Shown here one piece after another: positions 42,541 through 54,361 of a stretch of DNA of 64,000 nucleotides. The position numbers and the translations under genes are program-made. How positions within the stretch are numbered: the stretch's first letter is position 1; every line of letters begins with the position of its first letter. The notes beneath the pieces were generated by a model. The model had not been told where the DNA came from and made no database searches. It was given only the letters and a program-made list of their open reading frames with translations. Source of the stretch: Escherichia coli (GTDB taxonomy: Bacteria; Pseudomonadota; Gammaproteobacteria; Enterobacterales; Enterobacteriaceae); NCBI RefSeq assembly GCF_024700885.2, contig NZ_CP117014.1. One strand, 5' to 3'.

Positions 42541-42845
42541 TGATGACCGGCGAGCTTTATTTTAAAATGGCACGGGAGCGGCGTGTGCATCTGGATCGGA
42601 TATTTCATCTCCAGAAGAGAGTAGAAGAACTGGAACGTCGTCTGAACTGTTATCCTGTTGATATGGTGTCTGCAATACCGCCGATTCCAATAGAAATGCA
42701 GATCCGCCTATGGATGGAAGAATATGGAATGCCGTGGGAGATATTTTTCTGCTTCGACCATAAACAGTGGGTAGATGAGCTGGATAATAGTTTCCCATAT
42801 TTCACAGAGAACACATGCCCAGTATGCAGGAAGAACGGAATATGA
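42540..42845 (+). CDS. Coiled-coil / zinc-ribbon small protein, paralog B
   Basis: Tandem paralog of previous gene. Confidence 0.4.
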   Translation: MMTGELYFKMARERRVHLDRIFHLQKRVEELERRLNCYPVDMVSAIPPIPIEMQIRLWMEEYGMPWEIFFCFDHKQWVDELDNSFPYFTENTCPVCRKNGI

Positions 42846-43366
42846 CAAAATTTGGAAAGCTGGAAGCTCATTTGCTAACTCGCAACTACCGCCATGATAT
42901 ACACCCATATAGACAGTGGATCGATGAAAGCGAAGGAGTAGTTACATTCCCTCTCTACAGGTTTGATGGGATGTTGGCTGGGTATCAGACATATAGACCA
43001 GGTGCACCTAAGCAGCATAGCAATCCGAAGATGGCCCGGTATTTCACGCGATCACACGGCAGACAGTTACTTTGGGGAACCTATCTTCCTTTAAAAGATG
43101 GCCCAATATGGATAACTGAGTCTATTTTTAAGAGCGCAGCTGTACACAACGCGGGCGGCAATTCGTGGGCGCTGTTAGGTTCAACTTTCTCCGCAGGATT
43201 ACGCCGTCAACTTGCGATGCTGCCGTATGACTTTCGCGTAATAGGTGACAATGATGCGGCTGGTGAATCACTTGTGAAGTCTTTCGGAAAAGGTTTTGTG
43301 GCCCCGGATCTTGACGAGCTACAACCACATGAAGTGTCTCATTTGATTTTTAGCCATAGCCAATAA
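42815..43366 (+). CDS. Hypothetical protein with Toprim-like acidic motif (start uncertain)
   Basis: ...ITESIFKSAAV...VIGDNDAAGE... resembles a Toprim E / DxD arrangement. Confidence 0.3.
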   Translation: MPSMQEERNMTKFGKLEAHLLTRNYRHDIHPYRQWIDESEGVVTFPLYRFDGMLAGYQTYRPGAPKQHSNPKMARYFTRSHGRQLLWGTYLPLKDGPIWITESIFKSAAVHNAGGNSWALLGSTFSAGLRRQLAMLPYDFRVIGDNDAAGESLVKSFGKGFVAPDLDELQPHEVSHLIFSHSQ

Positions 43367-44890: not shown

Positions 44891-45270
44891 TGAGGCATAT
44901 ATCACCGGAAGAACTTATTGCGCTTCATGATGCGAATATAAGCCGCTACGGCGGCCTGCCGGGAATGTCAGATCCGGGTAGGGCAGAGGCCATTATCGGG
45001 AGAGTTCAGGCCAGAGTTGCCTACGAAGAGATCACCGACCTTTTCGAAGTCTCCGCCACCTACCTGGTGGCTACGGCGAGAGGGCATATATTCAATGATG
45101 CCAATAAGCGTACCGCGCTAAACAGTGCGCTGCTATTTCTACGCCGTAACGGTATACAGGTATATGATGATCCCGTGCTGGTGGAGCTTGCAGTGGGGGC
45201 TGCAACTGGTGAAATCCCCGTATCTTCAGTAGCGAAAAAACTACGTGAACTATATGGTTCCAATATTTGA
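44890..45270 (+). CDS. doc: Doc toxin (Fic-fold kinase)
   Basis: 126 aa with HIFNDANKR Fic motif; P1 Doc-like. Confidence 0.85.
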
Positions 45271-45305
45271 AAAGAAGCCCGCTCAACCAGGCGGGCTTCT
45301 TACTA

Positions 45306-46400
45306 TCACTCAATGATTTTTTCTGCTGTCAGCCAGCTAATTTCTTGCCTGTCTTTCGGCGGTTTTAGCATGTGGGCGTATTCAGCGACATTCTCCCACG
45401 GAATTGTTTTTGCCCACTCAACGATAGCATTGTGATCTGCAGTGAAGAGTGGAATGGTGTGCGATTTCAACCATTCTAATGTCGTGACGCCATGTTTTTT
45501 GGCGTGGTGCTGCGCATGATGCCGGGCTATCACTCGTAATGGTATTGTCCATTCACTACCATCAGGCATCGAAAAGCGCATTGTCTTCGGCATATCTGAT
45601 TCAAGAACAGCCTCCCTAATACCAGGGAACTCACCAAGAATCATACGACGATAGTCATCACTATTTCGCCCGCCATACCTTTCGGCAAAATGATCAAGAT
45701 ATTCTTGGGTAATAAATGGTGAATCCTCCGCACTCAGCTTAATGGCTTTATATACACCACTCGGATTATCTTCAGCTAAAGCACGTCCATGATGTGAATC
45801 ATAAAAAAAGCCTATTTCCTCTGGTGACGGAATTGAAGTGAGCAATATGCGTGAATCACCACTAGTCATGCTTGCCCACACAATGCTGTATGCCCGATCG
45901 CTGATATGTGCGGAATCCACAATAATGAATAAAAGATGGTCGGCGTAGTGACCTGCAATGCTATCTTCATAGTTAAGGCGGAAGTTACAAAAGCACATTC
46001 CCCAAAATTCATTGAACATCAGACCGCTATCACCGACCTTAAAATACTCAATGATAAAAGGTTGTTTTTTCAGCAATGCCTCCCAACATTGCCACACATA
46101 TGCAACAATTCCTCTTTTGCAAACATTTGATTTTGGATAAACAATTACTGTCCGGGAATCAGGATACATAATCGTATAAAGGGTACTAATAACAGCAAGC
46201 ACTTGCGGTCGTCCGATCCCATACGGAGTGGTGACAGTAGCTTTTGCATTATTGGGCTGTATAGCTTCAACAATTTGTTGTTGCTGGTGGCTTAAATCAA
46301 TATCAAACAATTCTTTTGCTGCCAGTACCCAATTGTCTTTATATTTCTCCACCAGCGACAGCCAGCGCGGATCTTTATAAATATTGCTCTTAGTCGCCAT
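45306..46400 (-). CDS. PacB-like terminase large-subunit paralog with degenerate Walker motifs (365 aa)
   Basis: Collinear with PacB N-terminal half (SHQQQQI, DSHHGRA, ESPF, YGGR) but Walker A GHGTGKSS replaced by PYGIGRPQ and Walker B LDEAS by VDSAH; start ATG 46400. Confidence 0.5.
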   Translation of the reverse strand: MATKSNIYKDPRWLSLVEKYKDNWVLAAKELFDIDLSHQQQQIVEAIQPNNAKATVTTPYGIGRPQVLAVISTLYTIMYPDSRTVIVYPKSNVCKRGIVAYVWQCWEALLKKQPFIIEYFKVGDSGLMFNEFWGMCFCNFRLNYEDSIAGHYADHLLFIIVDSAHISDRAYSIVWASMTSGDSRILLTSIPSPEEIGFFYDSHHGRALAEDNPSGVYKAIKLSAEDSPFITQEYLDHFAERYGGRNSDDYRRMILGEFPGIREAVLESDMPKTMRFSMPDGSEWTIPLRVIARHHAQHHAKKHGVTTLEWLKSHTIPLFTADHNAIVEWAKTIPWENVAEYAHMLKPPKDRQEISWLTAEKIIE

Positions 46401-47157
46401 CTGCCACTTCCTTAACTTCTTCTTTGGCCTGTTCTGCAATCGCCGCACGGCATTTCGCCCTGGCTGTAGCGATTGCTTCAGCTCGCACATCGTCTGGAAT
46501 CGTTGACGTGATATACATATCCAGTTCTTCGGCACGGAATACTGTTTGGTCCAGATATTCGCGTAGCATCCAGGTAAATTCGAAATCACACGCGATAATC
46601 TCTGCGCTACCTTCTGCACCATTTGGGAAATGAATAAATGCCTGTTTAGCCAAACCGATAACACGACATGCGGTTGCCAAAACAGCGACAACTAGGTTTA
46701 CATTTTCACACGCTACGGGCTGGTTAACGCCGGAGATTACTCCATTTAACTGTCGGTTATATGGAAGGTAGTTTGAGATGCGTTCTACGCGCCATGTGCC
46801 AGTCAGGCTGCCATTTTTAAATATAATTGGTGTAACGGATAGCCCAAGCTCGCGTATAAGTCGTTGCGCTATAGCAGGATCATTAAACAGGTCTAATGCT
46901 ACACATTCGAAAGACTGCGCAAGGGCAAACAGTTCTTCCAGAGAGTAGTCTTTGCCCCTGGCGGTGATGTAACGACGAACGCCGCTGTCTGCATCACTCC
47001 ATATAGCTACGCCATGCTCTTCATTCAGCTCTTCATTAAAGCCGAGATACGTCATGATAGTGCGTTCAATCGTGTCAAACGGCAGTGACATGTCGGCGTT
47101 AACAGCCACCAGCAGGCCATTACGCAAGCGGTATTGAATTGTTTTAGTGCTTTCCAT
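46390..47157 (-). CDS. Hypothetical protein (255 aa)
   Basis: ORF overlapping paralog start. Confidence 0.4.
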   Translation of the reverse strand: MESTKTIQYRLRNGLLVAVNADMSLPFDTIERTIMTYLGFNEELNEEHGVAIWSDADSGVRRYITARGKDYSLEELFALAQSFECVALDLFNDPAIAQRLIRELGLSVTPIIFKNGSLTGTWRVERISNYLPYNRQLNGVISGVNQPVACENVNLVVAVLATACRVIGLAKQAFIHFPNGAEGSAEIIACDFEFTWMLREYLDQTVFRAEELDMYITSTIPDDVRAEAIATARAKCRAAIAEQAKEEVKEVADGD

Positions 47158-47163
47158 GTCAAA

Positions 47164-47604
47164 TCACTCCACAACAAACCAGTCACAGGCCAGCAGGTCG
47201 CCAACTGAAGGCACCCACGGAACAACTACACCTTGTGCATTTTTTAAGGCGAAATAAGCACCATACGGAACGAGGTCGCCGGGGAAATATCCCTTAATGG
47301 CTTCCATTCGTGCCGGGTACTGTCCTTCAGGAACCAGCCAGCAGAATTGGTTTTCGCCGTTCCACCCGCGTCGAGCAACTTTCTTGCCTTCCTTCAGCCA
47401 CATCAGCGCGTCTGAAAAGTCGGCTGCTTCAAGGTCGATTTCTTCTTGCTGGGTGGTGATGCCACCAGCAGAAATAGTTACGCTCCCGGTAAGATTAATC
47501 ATCACGCCGTTGTCATCCGTAATGATGACCGTGGTTCCATTTTTTTTGTGAGCTTTGTATTTGGGACGGAACTTAAAAAGCTCTTTCGTTGCCATGTTAT
47601 TCAT
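47164..47604 (-). CDS. DUF2829-like (Tad2-like) domain protein with N-terminal extension
   Basis: C-terminal half ...DALMWLKEGKKVARRGWNG...VGDLLACDWFVVE matches the DUF2829 pattern from memory. Confidence 0.5.
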   Translation of the reverse strand: MNNMATKELFKFRPKYKAHKKNGTTVIITDDNGVMINLTGSVTISAGGITTQQEEIDLEAADFSDALMWLKEGKKVARRGWNGENQFCWLVPEGQYPARMEAIKGYFPGDLVPYGAYFALKNAQGVVVPWVPSVGDLLACDWFVVE

Positions 47605-47618
47605 AGTCTTTTCTCTGC

Positions 47619-48113
47619 TTATAACTTTTCGTACTGAAGCGGTGAACGCTTAATTTCAAAGTGGCCTTCCGATGTGCTACCAAAGCCACCAGCACCACGC
47701 TCCGTTTCGTTGAGTTCCTCAACCTCGACTAGTGAGACTTGTTCAACACGCTCAAAAATTCCTTGCATGACAGCCATTCCAGGCTTGAGACAAACGCCTT
47801 CCCCGCCGGGATCAGTAATCAGTTTTGCCATGATTTCGCCGCGATAATCGGAGTCGATAATTCCTACGCAGTTAGCCAGGCGAGTATGTTTTTTGCAGCC
47901 CAATCCTGATCGCGGATAGAGTTTCAGACACCAGCCGGGCGGGATCTCCATAGCCAGTCCGGTATACACCCACCAGCTTGAGGAAATTGCACCATTGCTA
48001 TCGACGCATGGTTTTATTTCAACAGCCTCAAAATCCATCGCCGCCGATCCGGAGGTGGCATAAGCTGGAAGTTTTGCTGCCGGATGTAGGCGTTTCACTT
48101 TTACGTAAATCAT
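47619..48113 (-). CDS. dut: dUTP diphosphatase
   Basis: Motifs AYATSGSA, PRSGLG, GIIDSDYRGE, GAGGFGSTS. Confidence 0.8.
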   Translation of the reverse strand: MIYVKVKRLHPAAKLPAYATSGSAAMDFEAVEIKPCVDSNGAISSSWWVYTGLAMEIPPGWCLKLYPRSGLGCKKHTRLANCVGIIDSDYRGEIMAKLITDPGGEGVCLKPGMAVMQGIFERVEQVSLVEVEELNETERGAGGFGSTSEGHFEIKRSPLQYEKL

Positions 48114-48592
48114 TGTTTTTTAGCTCTCTGCGTGAAGGTGTAAACCCGACGTTTGATATGTGGAACGGTAGGAACAGGAAGACAGGAACTTTCAATAACT
48201 CCTTGCTCATCCAGCGATCGCACCGCCCGCAAGAACTGCGACGTGTCGCCGCCAAACTGGCGGGCATAGGTGCTGCCGTTATGAAGTATTTGAGCTATTA
48301 CCCGAGTTTTTGTCTGGCTGTCACGATATGCGAATAGCCGCACGGCCTCTTCTGGCGCAATCGCTAACTGATAGCCTTTCCCGGCACGGTGTCGAATGAA
48401 TCCATGCGCCAGTAGGTTTTTGAGTTCGTTACGAGTGCGAACAGATCCGTAACCCAGGAAGTGTGGATTGATAACGACTGGCTTAAACCATTCCGTAGGT
48501 GCTTTAGCTAATAGAGCTAACAGCTTCCCGGATAATTCTGGATAGGAAGACGGGTAACAATTCAGAGATGGGTAATAAGTTTTCACCGACAC
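48110..48592 (-). CDS. Hypothetical protein (160 aa)
   Basis: 4-nt overlap with dut. Confidence 0.4.
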   Translation of the reverse strand: MSVKTYYPSLNCYPSSYPELSGKLLALLAKAPTEWFKPVVINPHFLGYGSVRTRNELKNLLAHGFIRHRAGKGYQLAIAPEEAVRLFAYRDSQTKTRVIAQILHNGSTYARQFGGDTSQFLRAVRSLDEQGVIESSCLPVPTVPHIKRRVYTFTQRAKKQ

Positions 48593-48927
48593 CCCCTTGC
48601 AGGATATCGACCGGCATTAGTATCCGGTGCAATAAAGCCGGTAGTGGGGCGAGTGAAAGCGAGATTAATCTTCTCGACCATAGTGCGATAATTTTCCTGA
48701 TAGTGGGCCAGGAGTTTTTCGGCGGCAATGATGGTTACTTTCCGGACGTAGCTTTCTGCTTCCTCCAGATTTCGCCAGTTTTTTTCGAGGGTAAACACAG
48801 GGACGGCCTCAAGCCCGGTCATGATGCCGAACACAACGACAGCATGACTGTTCTTAACACCAGCGGCGAAGGTTACGGTGTAACCATCCACCTTGAAGCG
48901 TCTTGATTCCGTGATTTGACTCTGCAA
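48583..48927 (-). CDS. Hypothetical protein (114 aa)
   Basis: First gene downstream of recombinase. Confidence 0.4.
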   Translation of the reverse strand: MQSQITESRRFKVDGYTVTFAAGVKNSHAVVVFGIMTGLEAVPVFTLEKNWRNLEEAESYVRKVTIIAAEKLLAHYQENYRTMVEKINLAFTRPTTGFIAPDTNAGRYPARGCR

Positions 48928-49000
48928 AGCACCCTCCTAAATAGGCGAGGGTACTTTACAGCAAAGGCGTTAATCTAAAAAGATGTGTTAGAAATTTAAT

Positions 49001-50029
49001 TTACGAATCCATCAGGCGGCTATTAGCCCCCACAGACACGCCGCCACGGCGAAGATACCGCATAAGTGTTTCCGGTTTCTTCCAGGTTCCTTCCTGCATG
49101 ATCTCCACCATAGACACCTGCTTTTCAGCCATATCAATAGCGGCCCCGACGCGTGCACTATGCCCGGTCCACGTCCGGTATCTTCCTTTGTTTGGCGTAG
49201 CATCTCTTTTATTCAGCAACACCCAGGCGTCGCTGAATATTTTCTCCATTGCAGGTGCAGTAAGGGGCGTTGTCGTGATCCTGGCCTTATTGCTACGGTG
49301 TATCGGCGGGAACAGCACTGCGTCAGGATGTTCGCGAAGCCCGGAAACATCCAGCCAGTCATTCAGCACAGCGGTAGTGCGACGGGAAAGCACCTTATCA
49401 AGCCCGGCGGCGGTCGTTATTGTCTTCGTGTGTGAAATATGTAGCGTGACAGTGTCACCTGTTTGATCCAGATCTCCTACACGAATACGCGAGATTTCCG
49501 ACATACGCATCAGCGTATTGTATGCAACAAAGAGAAAAGCCCGGTTGCGCAGGTCCACCAGCCGTTCTGACCTGGACAACAGGACGTCGAGCAGTTTCAG
49601 ATCGTCCCACCGAAGCGGTATAGCCTGGCCTGTTCGTTCGCCTTTTTCAGTTGCCGCTTCGCGCCGGATGCGCCGCATAGCCAGAGAAACACTTTTATCA
49701 TCCGAAAGTGGCGGAAGGCCACAATGCGAAAGCAGCATATTCAGCATGGCGTAGTGCTTATCAATGGTGGTCGAAGCCAGATCGGCATCATGCAGCTGAA
49801 GAAAATACTCGCGGGCCATTTCTGGTGAGATCGGAAACCAGGCAAGCTGGCGAGCGTGACACCAGCGCGCCCATGAATGAAACACCAACCGGAGGTCGCG
49901 CAGAGTATTCGGCGCATAAGCCCCCTGGTCATTCATGAACCGCATAAAGTTTTCTGCAGCCTCCTGGTACTCTTTGCCAATGTTGCGCAGAAAACCACCG
50001 GAGCTGCCAGAGATAATTAATTCACTCAT
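49001..50029 (-). CDS. Cre-like tyrosine site-specific recombinase
   Basis: 342 aa collinear with P1 Cre (…WTGHSARVGAA.DMA……IMQ.G.W……Y.R), conserved R/H-x-x-R/W/Y; lox-like site ~150 bp upstream. Confidence 0.8.
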   Translation of the reverse strand: MSELIISGSSGGFLRNIGKEYQEAAENFMRFMNDQGAYAPNTLRDLRLVFHSWARWCHARQLAWFPISPEMAREYFLQLHDADLASTTIDKHYAMLNMLLSHCGLPPLSDDKSVSLAMRRIRREAATEKGERTGQAIPLRWDDLKLLDVLLSRSERLVDLRNRAFLFVAYNTLMRMSEISRIRVGDLDQTGDTVTLHISHTKTITTAAGLDKVLSRRTTAVLNDWLDVSGLREHPDAVLFPPIHRSNKARITTTPLTAPAMEKIFSDAWVLLNKRDATPNKGRYRTWTGHSARVGAAIDMAEKQVSMVEIMQEGTWKKPETLMRYLRRGGVSVGANSRLMDS

Positions 50030-50180
50030 GAAACTATTTAACCTCTATATACAGATAACGCTACGCGAAAAATATAAAAATGACAGGGTAGCTATAAGTT
50101 AATTTTCAAGATTCAAGCCTTTGATTCGAGGCGCGTATTTTCAGTGATGTCAATACTGATCATCTACCCATAATTATAGC

Positions 50181-50214
50181 CTAACTTTAAATAATGCCAA
50201 TTATTTAAAGTTAT
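50181..50214. other. lox-like recombination site: 13-bp inverted arms with 8-bp asymmetric spacer
   Basis: CTAACTTTAAATA-ATGCCAAT-TATTTAAAGTTAT; outer AACTT/AAGTTAT shared with loxP. Confidence 0.6.
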
Positions 50215-50395
50215 AAAATGCCGATTTTTTTTAATCCATCATAGATTGATGATGACCAGTAACACGTTGCCTTCATGGTCTTTAATTTGCGAAGTGTGGT
50301 TTCTACGGTTGGTTTTCTAAAATTGATGACAAAAAATCACAGTTCGATCCTTTACTCACTCTGTTATTCGACATAAATTTGTCATAGTAATTTTA

Positions 50396-50411
50396 TGTTA
50401 GAAAACTAAAT
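50396..50411 (+). promoter_or_regulatory. Dispersed motif copy TGTTAGAAAACTAAAT in promoter of gene at 50424
   Basis: Read directly, ~13 bp upstream of ATG. Confidence 0.45.
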
Positions 50412-50423
50412 CGAGTAGGAATA

Positions 50424-51461
50424 ATGAGTAAGAAGTCGATCGAGAAAGAGTACAAACGGTTCCTGCAAACCGCTGAACGGTGGAAAGAGCTGGTGGTCGC
50501 AAACTCTGTTTTCCATGATACCAGTTATGCTGGCGAGGAATTCCGCCATGTTGCATTAACGCATGACCAAAACATATTAGAAGAAGCTGAAAAATGTCTT
50601 GCTGAATGGAAAGCCTTCGTTGACATGTGCCGCGATGCCGACGGCAAAGCGTCGAACATTGTTGAGTCTGTATATTCTCCGATCCCATTCATCATTGAGG
50701 ACACCAATCAAAGCACGCATGTCGTTGTGCAAAGCGCTACAACAACACGTACATTTACACGTGAACAATTGCTAAAAAAATACGACAAAATCATAAAGAA
50801 AAGCCTTAAAAATAGGGTTTTTTCTCAAATCGTAGGTGATCTTGAAGAAGAACAGCGCTTCTTTGAAGCTGAGCCTGAAGGCGAGATCTACCGGGCGCGT
50901 AAAGAGGCATATACAGATGTTGTGCTGACAACAAACATCGAAGGCAGCAATGCCCTTTCTCGCTTTAGAGTTGGCGCACATGGTGCATTGGTTTTCGCAA
51001 GACTACCGAAGACAACGATCCCCGTTGTCAATAATGTTGGTGAACGCCGGAGCATTACAATTTATTCTGGCGTCGAATCGGTACCTTGCAGCCTTCTCGG
51101 CGATTTTAACTTATATCGTGTTCGTGACCTGGAAAAACACCAGCCAAGCTATGTTGCGAAGTCGTACATCTTAAGGAACATCGATATTCGCAATGAAAGC
51201 CTTAAGCAGAAATCCGCTAAGATGCTGGAGGATGCCGATCCGGCTATTCGCCATATCATTGAGCGTAAGATACGTACATCACGTGAAGCAATGGCAAGGC
51301 TGGATAAAATGGATCTGGAATTGTTAGACGTAATGATGGCCTCTGGAGACGACCTGACCGGCATTAAACTGAATGAAGCTCGTAAAAAATACGGCAAAGC
51401 AATCGAAGAACGTTACGGATACACATTCCCCCAAACGCAGTACGCCGCGAAGCTCTGGTAA
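50424..51461 (+). CDS. Hypothetical protein in the c1-equivalent position (345 aa); candidate regulator
   Basis: Convergent with pacB and adjacent to lox-like site, as for c1 in P1; motif copy in own promoter; no recognisable P1 C1 similarity. Confidence 0.4.
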   Translation: MSKKSIEKEYKRFLQTAERWKELVVANSVFHDTSYAGEEFRHVALTHDQNILEEAEKCLAEWKAFVDMCRDADGKASNIVESVYSPIPFIIEDTNQSTHVVVQSATTTRTFTREQLLKKYDKIIKKSLKNRVFSQIVGDLEEEQRFFEAEPEGEIYRARKEAYTDVVLTTNIEGSNALSRFRVGAHGALVFARLPKTTIPVVNNVGERRSITIYSGVESVPCSLLGDFNLYRVRDLEKHQPSYVAKSYILRNIDIRNESLKQKSAKMLEDADPAIRHIIERKIRTSREAMARLDKMDLELLDVMMASGDDLTGIKLNEARKKYGKAIEERYGYTFPQTQYAAKLW

Positions 51462-51468
51462 TCACAAC

Positions 51469-51490
51469 CGGCCCCGCATCGCGGGGCTTT
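51469..51490. terminator. Bidirectional hairpin terminator between convergent genes
   Basis: GCCCCGC-atc-GCGGGGC followed by TTTATATAT. Confidence 0.55.
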
Positions 51491-52997
51491 ATATATCCAG
51501 ATCCGGCATTTCGATATCCGCCAGAACCTGATCTCGGAAAGTTGCCATTTCGGCACCAATATCTTCATTAGCAGGCACATAGTCCACCAGCATAGTGAAG
51601 CAGTAGGTATCCCATCGGTCAGGCGATTTGATGTTTAGCTTTTGCCGCATGTGCTCTTTGCGCATCATCGCCATTTTCCCTTCTTCATTCAGTAAAAAGG
51701 GGATTTTTGACGCTTGCTCTGCCGTTTTAGGGTCACTGTCTATCCGCATACGCCCTGACTTTATGGCATCACGCGCCATAATGTTTGCGTAGGCACGCTG
51801 ATTAACAAATCGCTCCCTGTCTTTGTTCGCAAACATGGGTTTTCCCCACCGAATACGTACCGGGTTCGCACCACGACGCACCAACTGCGCACACGTATCA
51901 GAACCAAAACCATCAGCATCAACCGCGATTGTTATATTCGGGTATTTTTCCGGCGTACATTCGTTATATATGAAGTCAGCAAAGGCCAATGGGTCCATAG
52001 TGCCAGGCATCTCCATTACCTTAAAGTTAACAACGCGCCGCTTATCCCTGTGACCTGATACCTTGCAGATGTTGAGGACCGACTTATCTCGCCCATTACC
52101 AACGTCAGCCGTTGCCACCCATCCCCAGTTTTTCTCCAACAACACCTTGCGGCGAGCAGAGCGATCGCATTCATCACGACCAAGCAAATAGCCGTTAATT
52201 TCTCGTGGGAACTGACCAAGCACCTTGACCATGTACTCAATAGAATCGCGCCCACCATATTCCAGAAGCTTCTCCTTGATGAATTGTGGTGTGACGAACG
52301 GTGATTCTTCCGAGTTAAGAACAATTGCTGTCCAGATCCCTTTCGGGTTGTCTGGGGTTTTTGCTCGAGAATGGTGCGAATCGTAGAAATAACCACTTGG
52401 CCTTGTTGGCTGGGATAGCATCAACATCCGGTTATCTTCTTCAGTAAGAGCACCGGTCATTACGCCGATCGCCTTATCAGATATACCAGATGCTTCATCC
52501 AGAATTAGAAGCAAATGTGCCGCGTGTTCCCCCGCCAGCGCTTCTTCGTTGCCGAGTCGATAACCTTTGCAGAGAACTTCCCAAATCCCCTTACGGGAGC
52601 GCTCATAAAACATGGTGTCAGAGAGGACAAAATAGGTCTGCAACCACCCATGACGCTTAACTGCATTCGCCCAATACTGTTTAACGTATTTGAATACGCC
52701 TGTTTTTACCTGGCCTATCTTGTTAGCAACAATGATGACACGGGCATCGGGGAACAGGATCATAAAAATCAACAGCAACATCGCGGTAAGGGACGACTTC
52801 CCCGTTCCGTGTCCGGACGTGACGGTCGTCCTACTCCCCGTTTCCTGCACTGACTGAATGATCTGCTGCTGCTGGTGGGAGGGGAACATCCCAAAAATAT
52901 CGACTACAGCCTGGGTAAAGTTGTAGCGGTATTTGATTACCATATCGCGCCAGCGTGGATCGCTGGTGACGCATTTAATCTTGCGCCCGCCAGCCAT
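51489..52997 (-). CDS. pacB: Terminase large subunit (PacB-like)
   Basis: Walker A GHGTGKSS, Walker B LLLILDEASG; 502 aa; start overlaps pacA stop. Confidence 0.8.
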   Translation of the reverse strand: MAGGRKIKCVTSDPRWRDMVIKYRYNFTQAVVDIFGMFPSHQQQQIIQSVQETGSRTTVTSGHGTGKSSLTAMLLLIFMILFPDARVIIVANKIGQVKTGVFKYVKQYWANAVKRHGWLQTYFVLSDTMFYERSRKGIWEVLCKGYRLGNEEALAGEHAAHLLLILDEASGISDKAIGVMTGALTEEDNRMLMLSQPTRPSGYFYDSHHSRAKTPDNPKGIWTAIVLNSEESPFVTPQFIKEKLLEYGGRDSIEYMVKVLGQFPREINGYLLGRDECDRSARRKVLLEKNWGWVATADVGNGRDKSVLNICKVSGHRDKRRVVNFKVMEMPGTMDPLAFADFIYNECTPEKYPNITIAVDADGFGSDTCAQLVRRGANPVRIRWGKPMFANKDRERFVNQRAYANIMARDAIKSGRMRIDSDPKTAEQASKIPFLLNEEGKMAMMRKEHMRQKLNIKSPDRWDTYCFTMLVDYVPANEDIGAEMATFRDQVLADIEMPDLDI

Positions 52998-54361
52998 TAA
53001 TCATCCTCCGGCGGTTCTATCGCGATATCATCATCTCCGGCGTCATACCCTGCATCAGATGCATCATAATCACCGTAAATTTCAGCCGTTGCCGAAGGGT
53101 CAATATCCAGCTCTTCGTCGTTGGCCTCGAATTCTCCAGCTTTACGCTCGCCATTGCGGTCGTAATCTCCGCACCCCAATTCTTCAACAATGGTTGCCAC
53201 ATCCGCCCGGCGCTCTGCCAGCCATTGCGGATGGTTAGCCTGAAGCGTTGCAAACTCCCTTGCCTCTTTGTCCAGCTGTTCATCATCAACATCATTGACG
53301 TCAGAAACAGGTGGTTCGAGAAGAGTGATAGCTTTCGCCGCGCGCGCCGCGAGGATAGCCGGGACGCTGACACCCTGGCGCTCGATGTATTCAGCAACAC
53401 CGATATCATCCAGTTCCTCGCGCTCACGCATACGTATAGCGGCGGCGATAACTCTGGCTGCGCGTGCGTCAGCGCCAATGCGATATTCAATCTCTTTGCC
53501 ACGCTGTTCGGCCTGTAGGCGTGCTAATTCGAGTTTTTCTCTGGCCTCAGCCTCTTTGAATGCTTGCTGGCGAGCGCTCTGACGAAGCTTTTCATCCCCC
53601 TGTCGCAGCTTTTGTTCGGACTGATATATAGCTGCCAACCTACTGATAAAATCATTCATGTAGTAGGCCGCGTCACTGATTAGACCGAGAAGGCGCTGCC
53701 CAGGGTGCATTCCTTCTGGCTCTTTATCGCCCAAGGCGTCTATTTCCGCCTGTAGACGTTCGGCCTCCTGATCAACAATGCTTTGATACTGAAGTGCGCG
53801 CTCTTGCGCCATTTGAATTGCTAACCGCAGGTGTTCTTCTGCGCCGTTCTTCATCATATCGCGAGCCACATTCGTAGTTGGCAATGTGGCACGCTGCACA
53901 GCACCGTCAGGGATCATTGCAGAAGATCCCTCAATTTTTGGGGCGTTTTTATCTTCTTCGGGGATCATTTTCGCCATTTTTTCGCGCAATGATCTCCTGA
54001 CAGATTCTTTTATCTCATTGTTATTATTTGAATTATTTTCATGATCCGAAGTTTTCTTTCTCGGCATACTTCGGAAAGAACCTGCGCCCTGCGAATTGTC
54101 AATTTCTGTAAATTTTGTTTTTTCTGCACCCTCTTCCAGCTTTTTTGTTGCTCTTCCCGCCCGTTTTTTTTCAGGTGATTTGGTGCTTTTTTTTGTTGTC
54201 TTTACCTGCGACCGCACCTCATTTTTTTTCATATTGAGATGCTTTCTGGCTGTATTGAAGCTAAGGCCATGCTCCTCACAGTATTCCTTTACAGTGATCC
54301 CTTTTTCTTCACGCAACGCTATAAAGCGGGCGCGGTGCTCCTCCCAATTAACCAGACTCAT
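52997..54361 (-). CDS. pacA: Terminase small subunit (PacA-like) with N-terminal HTH
   Basis: N-terminal ...KEYCEEHGLSFNTARKHL HTH; acidic C-terminus; internal GATC cluster. Confidence 0.7.
   Translation of the reverse strand: MSLVNWEEHRARFIALREEKGITVKEYCEEHGLSFNTARKHLNMKKNEVRSQVKTTKKSTKSPEKKRAGRATKKLEEGAEKTKFTEIDNSQGAGSFRSMPRKKTSDHENNSNNNNEIKESVRRSLREKMAKMIPEEDKNAPKIEGSSAMIPDGAVQRATLPTTNVARDMMKNGAEEHLRLAIQMAQERALQYQSIVDQEAERLQAEIDALGDKEPEGMHPGQRLLGLISDAAYYMNDFISRLAAIYQSEQKLRQGDEKLRQSARQQAFKEAEAREKLELARLQAEQRGKEIEYRIGADARAARVIAAAIRMREREELDDIGVAEYIERQGVSVPAILAARAAKAITLLEPPVSDVNDVDDEQLDKEAREFATLQANHPQWLAERRADVATIVEELGCGDYDRNGERKAGEFEANDEELDIDPSATAEIYGDYDASDAGYDAGDDDIAIEPPEDD
53912..54046. other. 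Candidate pac site: cluster of five GATC (Dam) sites within pacA
   Basis: GATC at 53912, 53925, 53963, 53991, 54043 (~0.5 expected by chance); GGGATCATT duplicated. Confidence 0.4.

Follow-up and report, generated by a model that had tools for sequence, protein, structure and literature searches.

A predicted pseudo-ATPase related to the terminase PacB is carried as an accessory gene by P1/D6-type phage-plasmids

The large terminase subunit (TerL) is regarded as a hallmark of tailed phages, encoded by a single-copy gene and strictly catalytic, and serves as a phylogenetic marker; it is also a principal target of bacterial pattern-recognition immunity. A second, degenerate terminase-like gene in a phage-plasmid raises the question of what its product does and whether it still takes part in packaging. 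The DNA analysed here (64,000 nucleotides of Escherichia coli contig NZ_CP117014.1, assembly GCF_024700885.2; hereafter the window) contains a region with 97-99% identity to plasmids of about 90-96 kb found in E. coli and Salmonella. This region is syntenic with D6, a phage-plasmid of the P1 family, over cre, two small open reading frames (ORFs), dut, a DUF2829 gene, isaA, doc, phd and humD. A first-pass annotation had described in it a truncated paralog of the terminase PacB with degenerate ATPase motifs, lying next to phd-doc, and had suggested that such a protein could regulate packaging or act as a decoy or interference factor. The paralog, its two domains and the resident PacB are located as follows.

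45306-46400, minus strand: pseudo-terminase (PacB paralog) gene, 1095 nt, 364 aa plus stop codon; pseudo-ATPase domain, linker and small C-terminal domain
45621-46382, minus strand: N-terminal domain of the paralog (N-domain, aa 7-260), terminase large-subunit ATPase fold, from BLASTP, motif table, AlphaFold2 and Foldseek
45309-45596, minus strand: C-terminal domain of the paralog (C-domain, aa 269-364), beta-hairpin and four helices, of a large family of stand-alone ~100-aa phage proteins
51489-52997, minus strand: resident PacB (terminase large subunit), parent type of the paralog, with all catalytic motifs and the nuclease half intact

Relation to PacB and loss of the catalytic motifs

As judged from sequence comparison, the paralog is very probably a selected, catalytically inert and non-essential derivative of PacB. 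BLASTP aligned its residues 7-259 with residues 10-264 of the window PacB over 258 positions, with 37% identity, 62% positives and an E value of 6e-57. This similarity is far beyond chance and bore out the collinearity with the N-terminal half of PacB on which the first-pass annotation had been built. The N-terminal 260 aa are homologous to and collinear with PacB of both P1 and D6, with which they share the additional strand, catalytic glutamate (ASCE) ATPase fold and the Q-motif, FYDSHH, EDSP, YGG and GEFP segments. The window PacB itself is 99.2% identical to that of D6 and 55-57% identical to those of P1, P7 and SJ46. No alignment was obtained by BLASTP between the paralog and PacB residues 265-502, the RNase H-like nuclease half, and the AlphaFold2 model described below contains a terminase ATPase fold only, in agreement with the claim that the nuclease half is missing. 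The description as truncated was half right: of PacB only the ATPase domain is present, but the nuclease half has been replaced by an unrelated, widespread domain of ~100 aa.

Unlike PacB, the paralog lacks the Lys and Ser of Walker A, the Asp-Glu pair of Walker B, the coupling (C) motif and the Arg following it, and the nuclease domain. At Walker A, PYGIGRPQ was found opposite GHGTGKSS of PacB (TPYGIGRP in the window protein), with Lys replaced by Arg and Ser by Pro. At Walker B, VDSAH was found opposite LDEAS (LLFIIVDS versus LLLILDEA), with Asp-Glu replaced by Val-Asp; both substitutions had already been read correctly from the sequence in the earlier work. At the coupling motif, SIPSPE stood opposite SQPTRP, so that SQPT had become SIPS and the following Arg was gone.

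A search of 1.8 billion proteins supplied 11 relatives of this type and 28 canonical PacB-type terminases, which were aligned with the window paralog; redundant rows were taken out before invariant columns were counted. SGHGTGK[ST], hhhhDEAS and SQPT/GNPT-R were retained in all 28 PacB-type terminases. None of the 12 clade representatives had the Walker A Lys, in place of which R, Q, H, E, M, C, T or I was found; the Walker B Asp and the Thr and Arg of the coupling motif were likewise missing from all of them. Eleven columns that were invariant in the 28 terminases (S58, G59, H60, K64, A88, H152, D161, E162, S164, T192 and R194) were lost in every one of the 12 paralogs. The concern that an intact P-loop had been misaligned could thus be set aside, the motif being absent from 12/12 paralogs and kept in 28/28 terminases. 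Fold-defining segments (QQ, G-x-G, LAG, FYxSHH, SP, YGG and GxF) were common to paralogs and terminases, and the N-terminal helices were conserved in both clades. Almost no conserved residues specific to the paralogs were observed in the alignment, so there was no sign of a new active site.

The charge of the domain has changed as well. The net charge of the N-domain was calculated to be +7 (pI, the isoelectric point, 9.3) in the window PacB and -6 (pI 5.65) in the window paralog; PacB-type ATPase domains were mostly basic, and the N-domains of paralogs mostly acidic or neutral. This flip from positive to negative charge argues against DNA gripping.

The ORF call confirmed the gene at 45306-46400 on the minus strand, and its product proved to have 364 aa, not the 365 aa given before. 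An identical start is used in RefSeq (WP_000201932.1, 'hypothetical protein') for the 100%-identical plasmid p702_18_3, and a Shine-Dalgarno sequence, AAGGAAG, ends 7 nt upstream of the ATG. The mechanical ORF is longer (45306-46691, minus strand, 461 aa), reaching an upstream TTG at 46691, but this extension merely overlaps isaA in another frame; a public record, P0002 (438 aa, 'MAG TPA: Terminase large subunit'), has such an over-extended start. The PHROG 5902 profile (359 positions), a family without assigned function, matched the paralog from end to end with an E value of 8.6e-165 (residues 4-363 on profile positions 2-358), and it also retrieved PacB. Searches of Pfam, NCBIfam, PADLOC and PDB sequences gave no match for the paralog, its C-domain or IsaA.

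Predicted structure and the C-terminal domain

The AlphaFold2 model of the paralog had a mean predicted local distance difference test (pLDDT) score of 86, with about 95 for the N-domain and about 75 for the C-domain, and a disordered linker at residues 261-268. When the model was compared with the PDB by Foldseek, the top matches were ATPase domains of TerL proteins (Sf6 gp2, P74-26, T4 gp17, D6E and HK97), with E values of 2e-8 and below. The PhiV-1 terminase bound to Avs3 (8dgc_E) was also returned. Structure prediction, which had been proposed as a check, thus found a terminase ATPase fold in the N-domain.

The C-terminal ~100 aa are a separate conserved domain and not a leftover of the terminase. 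A profile search with this domain retrieved more than 1000 clusters of stand-alone proteins of ~100 aa, for which neither a Pfam model nor a PDB relative was found; matches in the AlphaFold database came from many phyla and are uncharacterized. Stand-alone members are strongly acidic (median pI 4.4) and are typically encoded in nin or early-left accessory regions. In enterobacterial lambdoid prophages (Enterobacter, Atlantibacter and others; loci L016-L020), the stand-alone gene lies in the nin region or near the integrase gene, with accessory genes of the DUF551, Ead/Ea22 and Lar types as neighbours. The domain also forms the C-terminus of ORF36 of Xanthomonas phage CP2, and is a separate gene in the P1-like Cronobacter phage JK004. 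A search with the N-terminal part of CP2 ORF36 matched only DUF1351 and was uninformative. The further loci are:

L011 2771-4306 and L010 5001-5297: further C-domain loci, unannotated ~100-aa family

The two domains were also observed in the opposite order. A Klebsiella michiganensis protein (contig ABHTOV040000060.1, L027 6001-8384) has the ~100-aa domain first and a degenerate PacB-like ATPase domain second; a gene for a Tn3-family transposase, in the opposite orientation, truncates it, and a gene for a Ref-like RecA-dependent nuclease is found close by. When intact proteins with the reverse order were searched for, only this one truncated protein was returned. The reverse-order fusion, a single observation, supports a functional link between the two domains.

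As a separate observation, the window at 42815-43366 (plus strand) and the DNA upstream of it (L001 1-2538) carry genes for a Toprim-domain protein, an Ead/Ea22-like protein and DUF551 just upstream of humD. The Ead/Ea22-like and DUF551 types are the same as those flanking the stand-alone C-domain genes of lambdoid prophages.

Paralog clade, selection and alleles

In a neighbour-joining tree the 12 paralogs formed one clade with 100/100 bootstrap support, nested among the PacB-type terminases. Its members are 30-40% identical to each other and all are still open reading frames; further members with equally degenerate motifs are P0042, P0047, P0073, P0111, P0148 and P0150. Because the clade is monophyletic and the motif loss is shared, the data point to a single old duplication with probable loss of catalysis, followed by diversification. 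Database labels within the clade are inconsistent ('terminase large subunit', 'DNA packaging protein' or 'hypothetical protein').

The ratio of nonsynonymous to synonymous substitution rates (dN/dS) was 0.08-0.32 in pairwise comparisons of both domains, including allele pairs with saturated synonymous sites, so that both domains are under purifying selection. Of 5,426 complete E. coli genomes, 35 had the full-length gene, in each case on a plasmid; it also occurs in Salmonella, and related alleles in E. fergusonii and E. albertii. With such ratios and an ORF intact in many plasmids, the gene is not the disrupted pseudogene that the first-pass annotation had considered.

In D6-type plasmids at least three alleles of the N-domain were observed, which are about 50% identical to each other (64-66% for the whole protein), with a nearly identical C-domain. 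Between two of these alleles the synonymous divergence (dS) falls from 1.6 to 0.08 at the domain boundary, which marks a recombination breakpoint, and isaA has been exchanged together with the N-domain as one recombination tract. Divergent N-domain alleles on near-identical backbones fit a specificity determinant. The D6-type and P1-type paralogs are 51% identical, compared with about 56% for PacB of D6 and P1.

Several single members of the clade deserve mention. The copy in vB_EcoM-813R1 (L003 5950-7020) is 24 nt shorter and has another C-terminal peptide than the otherwise near-identical copy of MH422554, which suggests a frameshift near the 3' end. The gene for P0012, a 263-aa pseudo-terminase on a phage-plasmid-like contig of ~84 kb (L021 5336-6792), overlaps the stop codon of a Ref-like RecA-dependent nuclease gene (PF16786). 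That for P0013, a distant member, follows a radical SAM gene.

Genomic setting and dispensability

The paralog is flanked as follows by an isaA homologue, a terminator and, in relatives that have lost it, a deletion scar.

46390-47157, minus strand: isaA homologue, 48% identical to P1 IsaA and 97% to D6 orf113, supported by synteny; no Pfam or PDB match
45269-45299, minus strand: intrinsic terminator hairpin, AAGCCCGC-ctggttga-GCGGGCTT, then TCTTTTC, from terminator scan and sequence; between the paralog stop codon and the convergent doc stop codon
45269-45345 of the window and about 2800-2880 of L015: deletion scar, last 37-43 nt of the paralog plus terminator in D6-like plasmids

The stop codon of isaA overlaps the start of the paralog by 11 nt, and in D6-type as well as P1-type elements isaA is the gene upstream of the paralog. 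This overlap, a translational coupling, is conserved between the two types, whose proteins are about 50% identical. In P1-type phages without IS1 (MH422554 and vB_EcoM-813R1), the isaA-paralog pair lies between ssb and hxr, and in P1-type genomes the paralog adjoins the ddr/dar antirestriction genes. When P1 was compared with its paralog-bearing relatives, homology ended at the isaA stop codon, after which P1 has IS1 and isaB, a gene whose product is unrelated to the paralog. Published work describes the isaA-IS1-isaB region (RD-2) of P1-like plasmids as hypervariable (PMC6906374, PMC9603915). It is the same locus, in which the paralog directly follows isaA where P1 has IS1 and isaB. Three candidate relationships were rejected. 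P1 pdcB as a possible homologue was not supported, as tblastn found only pacB in P1 and P7; IsaB showed no similarity that would make it a remnant of the paralog, the P1 homology ending at the isaA stop; and IsaA showed none of the similarity to PacA that would be expected if pacAB had been duplicated as a pair.

The placement next to phd-doc was correct for the window, where the paralog adjoins the convergent doc gene (end at 45270, 35 nt apart), but this adjacency is not conserved in P1-type genomes, in which the paralog lies between isaA and hxr, far from phd-doc. A role as a third component of phd-doc was not borne out either: the paralog is convergent with doc, a terminator separates them, and both D6 and pLD93-1-90kb have phd-doc and no paralog. 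The adjacency is specific to D6-type elements and is thus incidental. The pacA and pacB genes (51489-54361) are ~5 kb away across cre and lox.

It was found that the paralog is absent from P1, P7 and D6, and tblastn with the paralog detected only pacB in P1 and P7. In D6 itself and in many D6-like plasmids, isaA is followed directly by doc. Plasmid pLD93-1-90kb retains the last ~40 nt of the paralog together with the terminator, and more than 50 complete E. coli genomes contain only such a relic of 37-43 nt plus terminator, which makes the relic commoner than the intact gene. These relics indicate repeated loss from a paralog-bearing ancestor, and hence that the gene is dispensable. Since D6 (with a 99.2% identical PacB), P1 and P7 do without the paralog, packaging does not need it, and a role required for packaging is unlikely. 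By CRISPR interference in P1, pacA and pacB scored as essential, whereas isaA and isaB proved non-essential (PMC10695390). These observations show that the paralog is an accessory gene of P1/D6-type phage-plasmids that stands outside the packaging machine. Unlike PacB, it is acidic rather than basic, is encoded apart from pacA, and is dispensable and often absent.

Predicted operon and expression

Upstream of isaA, the following genes have the same orientation as the paralog, according to the annotation of a 100%-identical plasmid.

47164-50029, minus strand: co-oriented upstream genes of the probable operon
49001-50029, minus strand: cre-like recombinase, in the probable operon; two small ORFs also lie between cre and dut
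47619-48113, minus strand: dut, in the probable operon
47164-47604, minus strand: DUF2829 Tad2-like protein, directly upstream of isaA and two genes upstream of the paralog

Tad2, an anti-Thoeris sponge, has the DUF2829 domain (10.1101/2023.05.01.538930). The window protein has 146 aa; related plasmids have versions of 216-220 aa.

A consensus scan of the minus strand from 45100 to 50500 gave one sigma70-like promoter, at 50200-50173, upstream of cre. A terminator scan of the same strand and range gave one convincing terminator, directly after the paralog, and none before 45292. Because the sole promoter-like site precedes cre and the sole terminator follows the paralog, an operon extending from cre to the paralog is plausible. 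In the P1 record a C1-controlled operator is annotated before ssb and no promoter before isaA, which suggests early, repressor-controlled expression of the paralog in P1-type elements. No match to the P1 C1 operator consensus was found anywhere in the window, which says little on regulation because D6-type immunity differs.

Possible functions of the paralog

Among the features by which TerL proteins are recognised, the paralog was found to have the ATPase fold, and to lack Walker A, Walker B, the C motif, the nuclease domain, and adjacency to pacA or a requirement in packaging. It has the features of a pseudoenzyme (pseudo-ATPase), namely a homologous fold, loss of the catalytic residues and selection for retention, the loss of activity being predicted from sequence. 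We infer that it works by binding and not by packaging DNA.

A specific mechanism of binding and interference is possible and is put forward tentatively, in which a mimic of the terminase fold occupies PacA or PacB and poisons or delays the pacase. An old duplicate of the PacB ATPase domain would have lost ATP binding and hydrolysis, the basic DNA-gripping surface and the nuclease domain, and would have acquired a small accessory domain of a kind often found in early regions of phages. Synthesis of the protein would probably be early, or constitutive at a low level, from the last gene of the cre-dut-DUF2829-isaA operon in D6-type elements and of a C1-controlled ssb-isaA operon in P1-type elements. 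As a stoichiometric mimic of the terminase ATPase fold, it would occupy a partner that normally docks on the PacB ATPase domain, which may be PacA or another subunit of the PacB ring. Pacase assemblies would then be inactive, poisoned or delayed, either those of a competing related element or those of the own element early in its cycle, and the C-domain may add a second contact or an effector function. Catalytically dead subunits act as dominant negatives in packaging motors that are ring ATPases. Small accessory proteins of satellites, Ppi of Staphylococcus aureus pathogenicity islands and Rpp of phage-inducible chromosomal islands, bind terminase components stoichiometrically and block or redirect packaging, which is the type of mechanism proposed here. 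They differ from the paralog in that they bind the small terminase subunit, are not derived from a terminase and are encoded by satellites and not by phages; we know of no homology between Ppi or Rpp and the paralog.

Several points weigh against this mechanism. The paralog is 33-37% identical to any PacB, so its co-assembly with a real PacB ring is not assured. A C1-repressed promoter in P1-type elements would mean no expression in the lysogen, which disfavours a role in superinfection exclusion. The C-domain family is present in many phages without a terminase paralog, in early accessory regions unrelated to packaging, and distant clade members adjoin unrelated genes, such as those for the Ref-like nuclease and the radical SAM protein. 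The neighbouring DUF2829/Tad2-like and dut genes point equally to counter-defence and to packaging, and the promoter assignment is based solely on a consensus scan.

Counter-defence is the subject of the main rival reading, which we consider doubtful: an early, dead terminase fold would engage Avs1-3 or Upx without activating them, or would shield PacB, and would so protect the phage-plasmid on entry or induction. Avs2, Avs3 and Upx are reported to bind the terminase ATPase domain directly, and for Upx this domain alone suffices and catalytic residues are irrelevant (bioRxiv 10.64898/2026.04.30.721860). The Foldseek match to the Avs3-bound PhiV-1 terminase 8dgc_E would suit such a protein, as would the Tad2-type DUF2829 gene two genes upstream, the ddr/dar antirestriction genes adjoining the paralog in P1-type genomes, and an acidic stand-alone C-domain family (median pI 4.4) residing in nin/ea-type regions beside Lar, Ead/Ea22 and DUF551. 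Conflict genes typically diversify into alleles and are present in some elements and absent from others, as seen here. However, the terminase-fold accessory proteins T4 vs.8, Ksap1 and Ksap2 activate Avs2 and do not inhibit it. EcAvs2 touches the terminase-bound ATP and Mg2+ (bioRxiv 10.64898/2026.04.30.721860), and because these features are lost, the paralog may go unrecognised by Avs2. PADLOC, run on the paralog, IsaA and the neighbouring genes, gave no match to known anti-phage defence or anti-defence families. Quite unlikely is the extended version, an immune decoy made from the sensed pattern itself, in which an early, ATP-blind fold would titrate or block Avs1-3 and Upx and the acidic C-domain would block receptor oligomerisation or effector activation. 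If true, it would be the first anti-Avs/Upx factor derived from the sensed protein, and the decoy reading would give a function to a family of small phage proteins with more than 1000 clusters. Alternatively, the fold may have been re-used outside terminase partners, as an inert scaffold that acts with its C-domain and IsaA or other neighbours in early DNA metabolism, recombination or host take-over. This is unlikely, although it would account for the coupling to isaA through the 11-nt overlap, conserved between D6-type and P1-type elements, for the swapping of isaA and the N-domain as one tract, for the operon shared with ssb (P1-type) or with cre and dut (D6-type), and for the overlap of a distant member with a Ref-like RecA-dependent nuclease gene. 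But isaA often occurs without the paralog, as in P1, in D6 and in many plasmids; IsaA is not a neighbour of the distant clade members; and there are few clade-specific conserved residues by which a new active site or binding site could be recognised. A universal partnership with IsaA was rejected, since distant members follow a Ref-like nuclease gene, a radical SAM gene or small ORFs.

Pseudoenzymes mostly regulate their active paralogs, which counts for an auxiliary subunit of the own pacase. Like non-catalytic subunits in other ring ATPases, the dead paralog would be part of the PacA-PacB holoenzyme or control it, for example in the timing of pac cleavage or the tuning of transduction. The N-terminal helices and fold motifs conserved in both clades (QQ, FYxSHH, SP, YGG and GxF) would agree with this, and the similar divergence between D6 and P1 (51% for the paralog, about 56% for PacB) is compatible with long co-residence. 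Nevertheless, we regard such a subunit as improbable: D6 has no such gene despite its 99.2% identical PacB, deletion variants outnumber intact copies among complete E. coli genomes, the paralog is unlinked to pacA and pacB (about 5 kb off across cre and lox), and very different N-domain alleles occupy the same locus between near-identical flanks, compared including the C-domain and doc. Simple decay, in which the gene would be a non-functional remnant of pacB heading for loss, has been largely refuted and is highly improbable. The catalytic motifs are gone and the gene is often deleted, the copy in vB_EcoM-813R1 has an altered 3' end, and one relative is truncated by a transposon. Against this stand the dN/dS of 0.08-0.32 in both domains, even with saturated dS; the full-length ORFs in 35 complete E. 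coli genomes and in Salmonella, with related alleles in E. fergusonii and E. albertii; a deep monophyletic clade with 30-40% identity in which all members are open; a retained Shine-Dalgarno sequence and terminator; and a confident AlphaFold2 model.

Comparison with described proteins

The literature, searched for dead terminase paralogs and for decoys of terminases, yielded no account of the paralog family. The closest described thing to it is T4 vs.8, an uncharacterized, nuclease-less accessory protein resembling the terminase ATPase, with intact Walker A and B motifs, which activates Avs2 (bioRxiv 10.64898/2026.04.30.721860). Both are second, nuclease-less homologues of the terminase ATPase domain of their own phage, encoded outside the packaging module. 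Unlike T4 vs.8, with which it was compared by description only, the paralog family has lost both Walker motifs and has an extra C-terminal domain. Ksap1 and Ksap2 are small phage proteins that trigger KpAvs2 (PMC11564622). Like the paralog they are non-essential accessory proteins, and they have been likened structurally to the terminase ATPase core (bioRxiv 10.64898/2026.04.30.721860); unlike it they are much smaller (74 aa for Ksap1), have no detectable terminase sequence homology and are known only as immune triggers.

The paralogs thus constitute a diversified and, by the substitution ratios, selectively kept clade of terminase ATPase domains, probably without catalysis, that were recruited as accessory proteins in phage-plasmids of Enterobacteriaceae. 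The inconsistent labels of its members could confound marker-based analyses. The family may be a natural source of packaging ATPases in dominant-negative or decoy form, and isogenic plasmids with and without the paralog already occur in nature. In addition, two fusions with opposite domain order connect the terminase fold with a very large group of uncharacterized early phage proteins of ~100 aa.

Elsewhere in the window, an ORF of 345 aa at 50424-51461 on the plus strand was found between the end of cre/lox and pacB, where P1 has c1; it is labelled 'hypothetical protein' in RefSeq.

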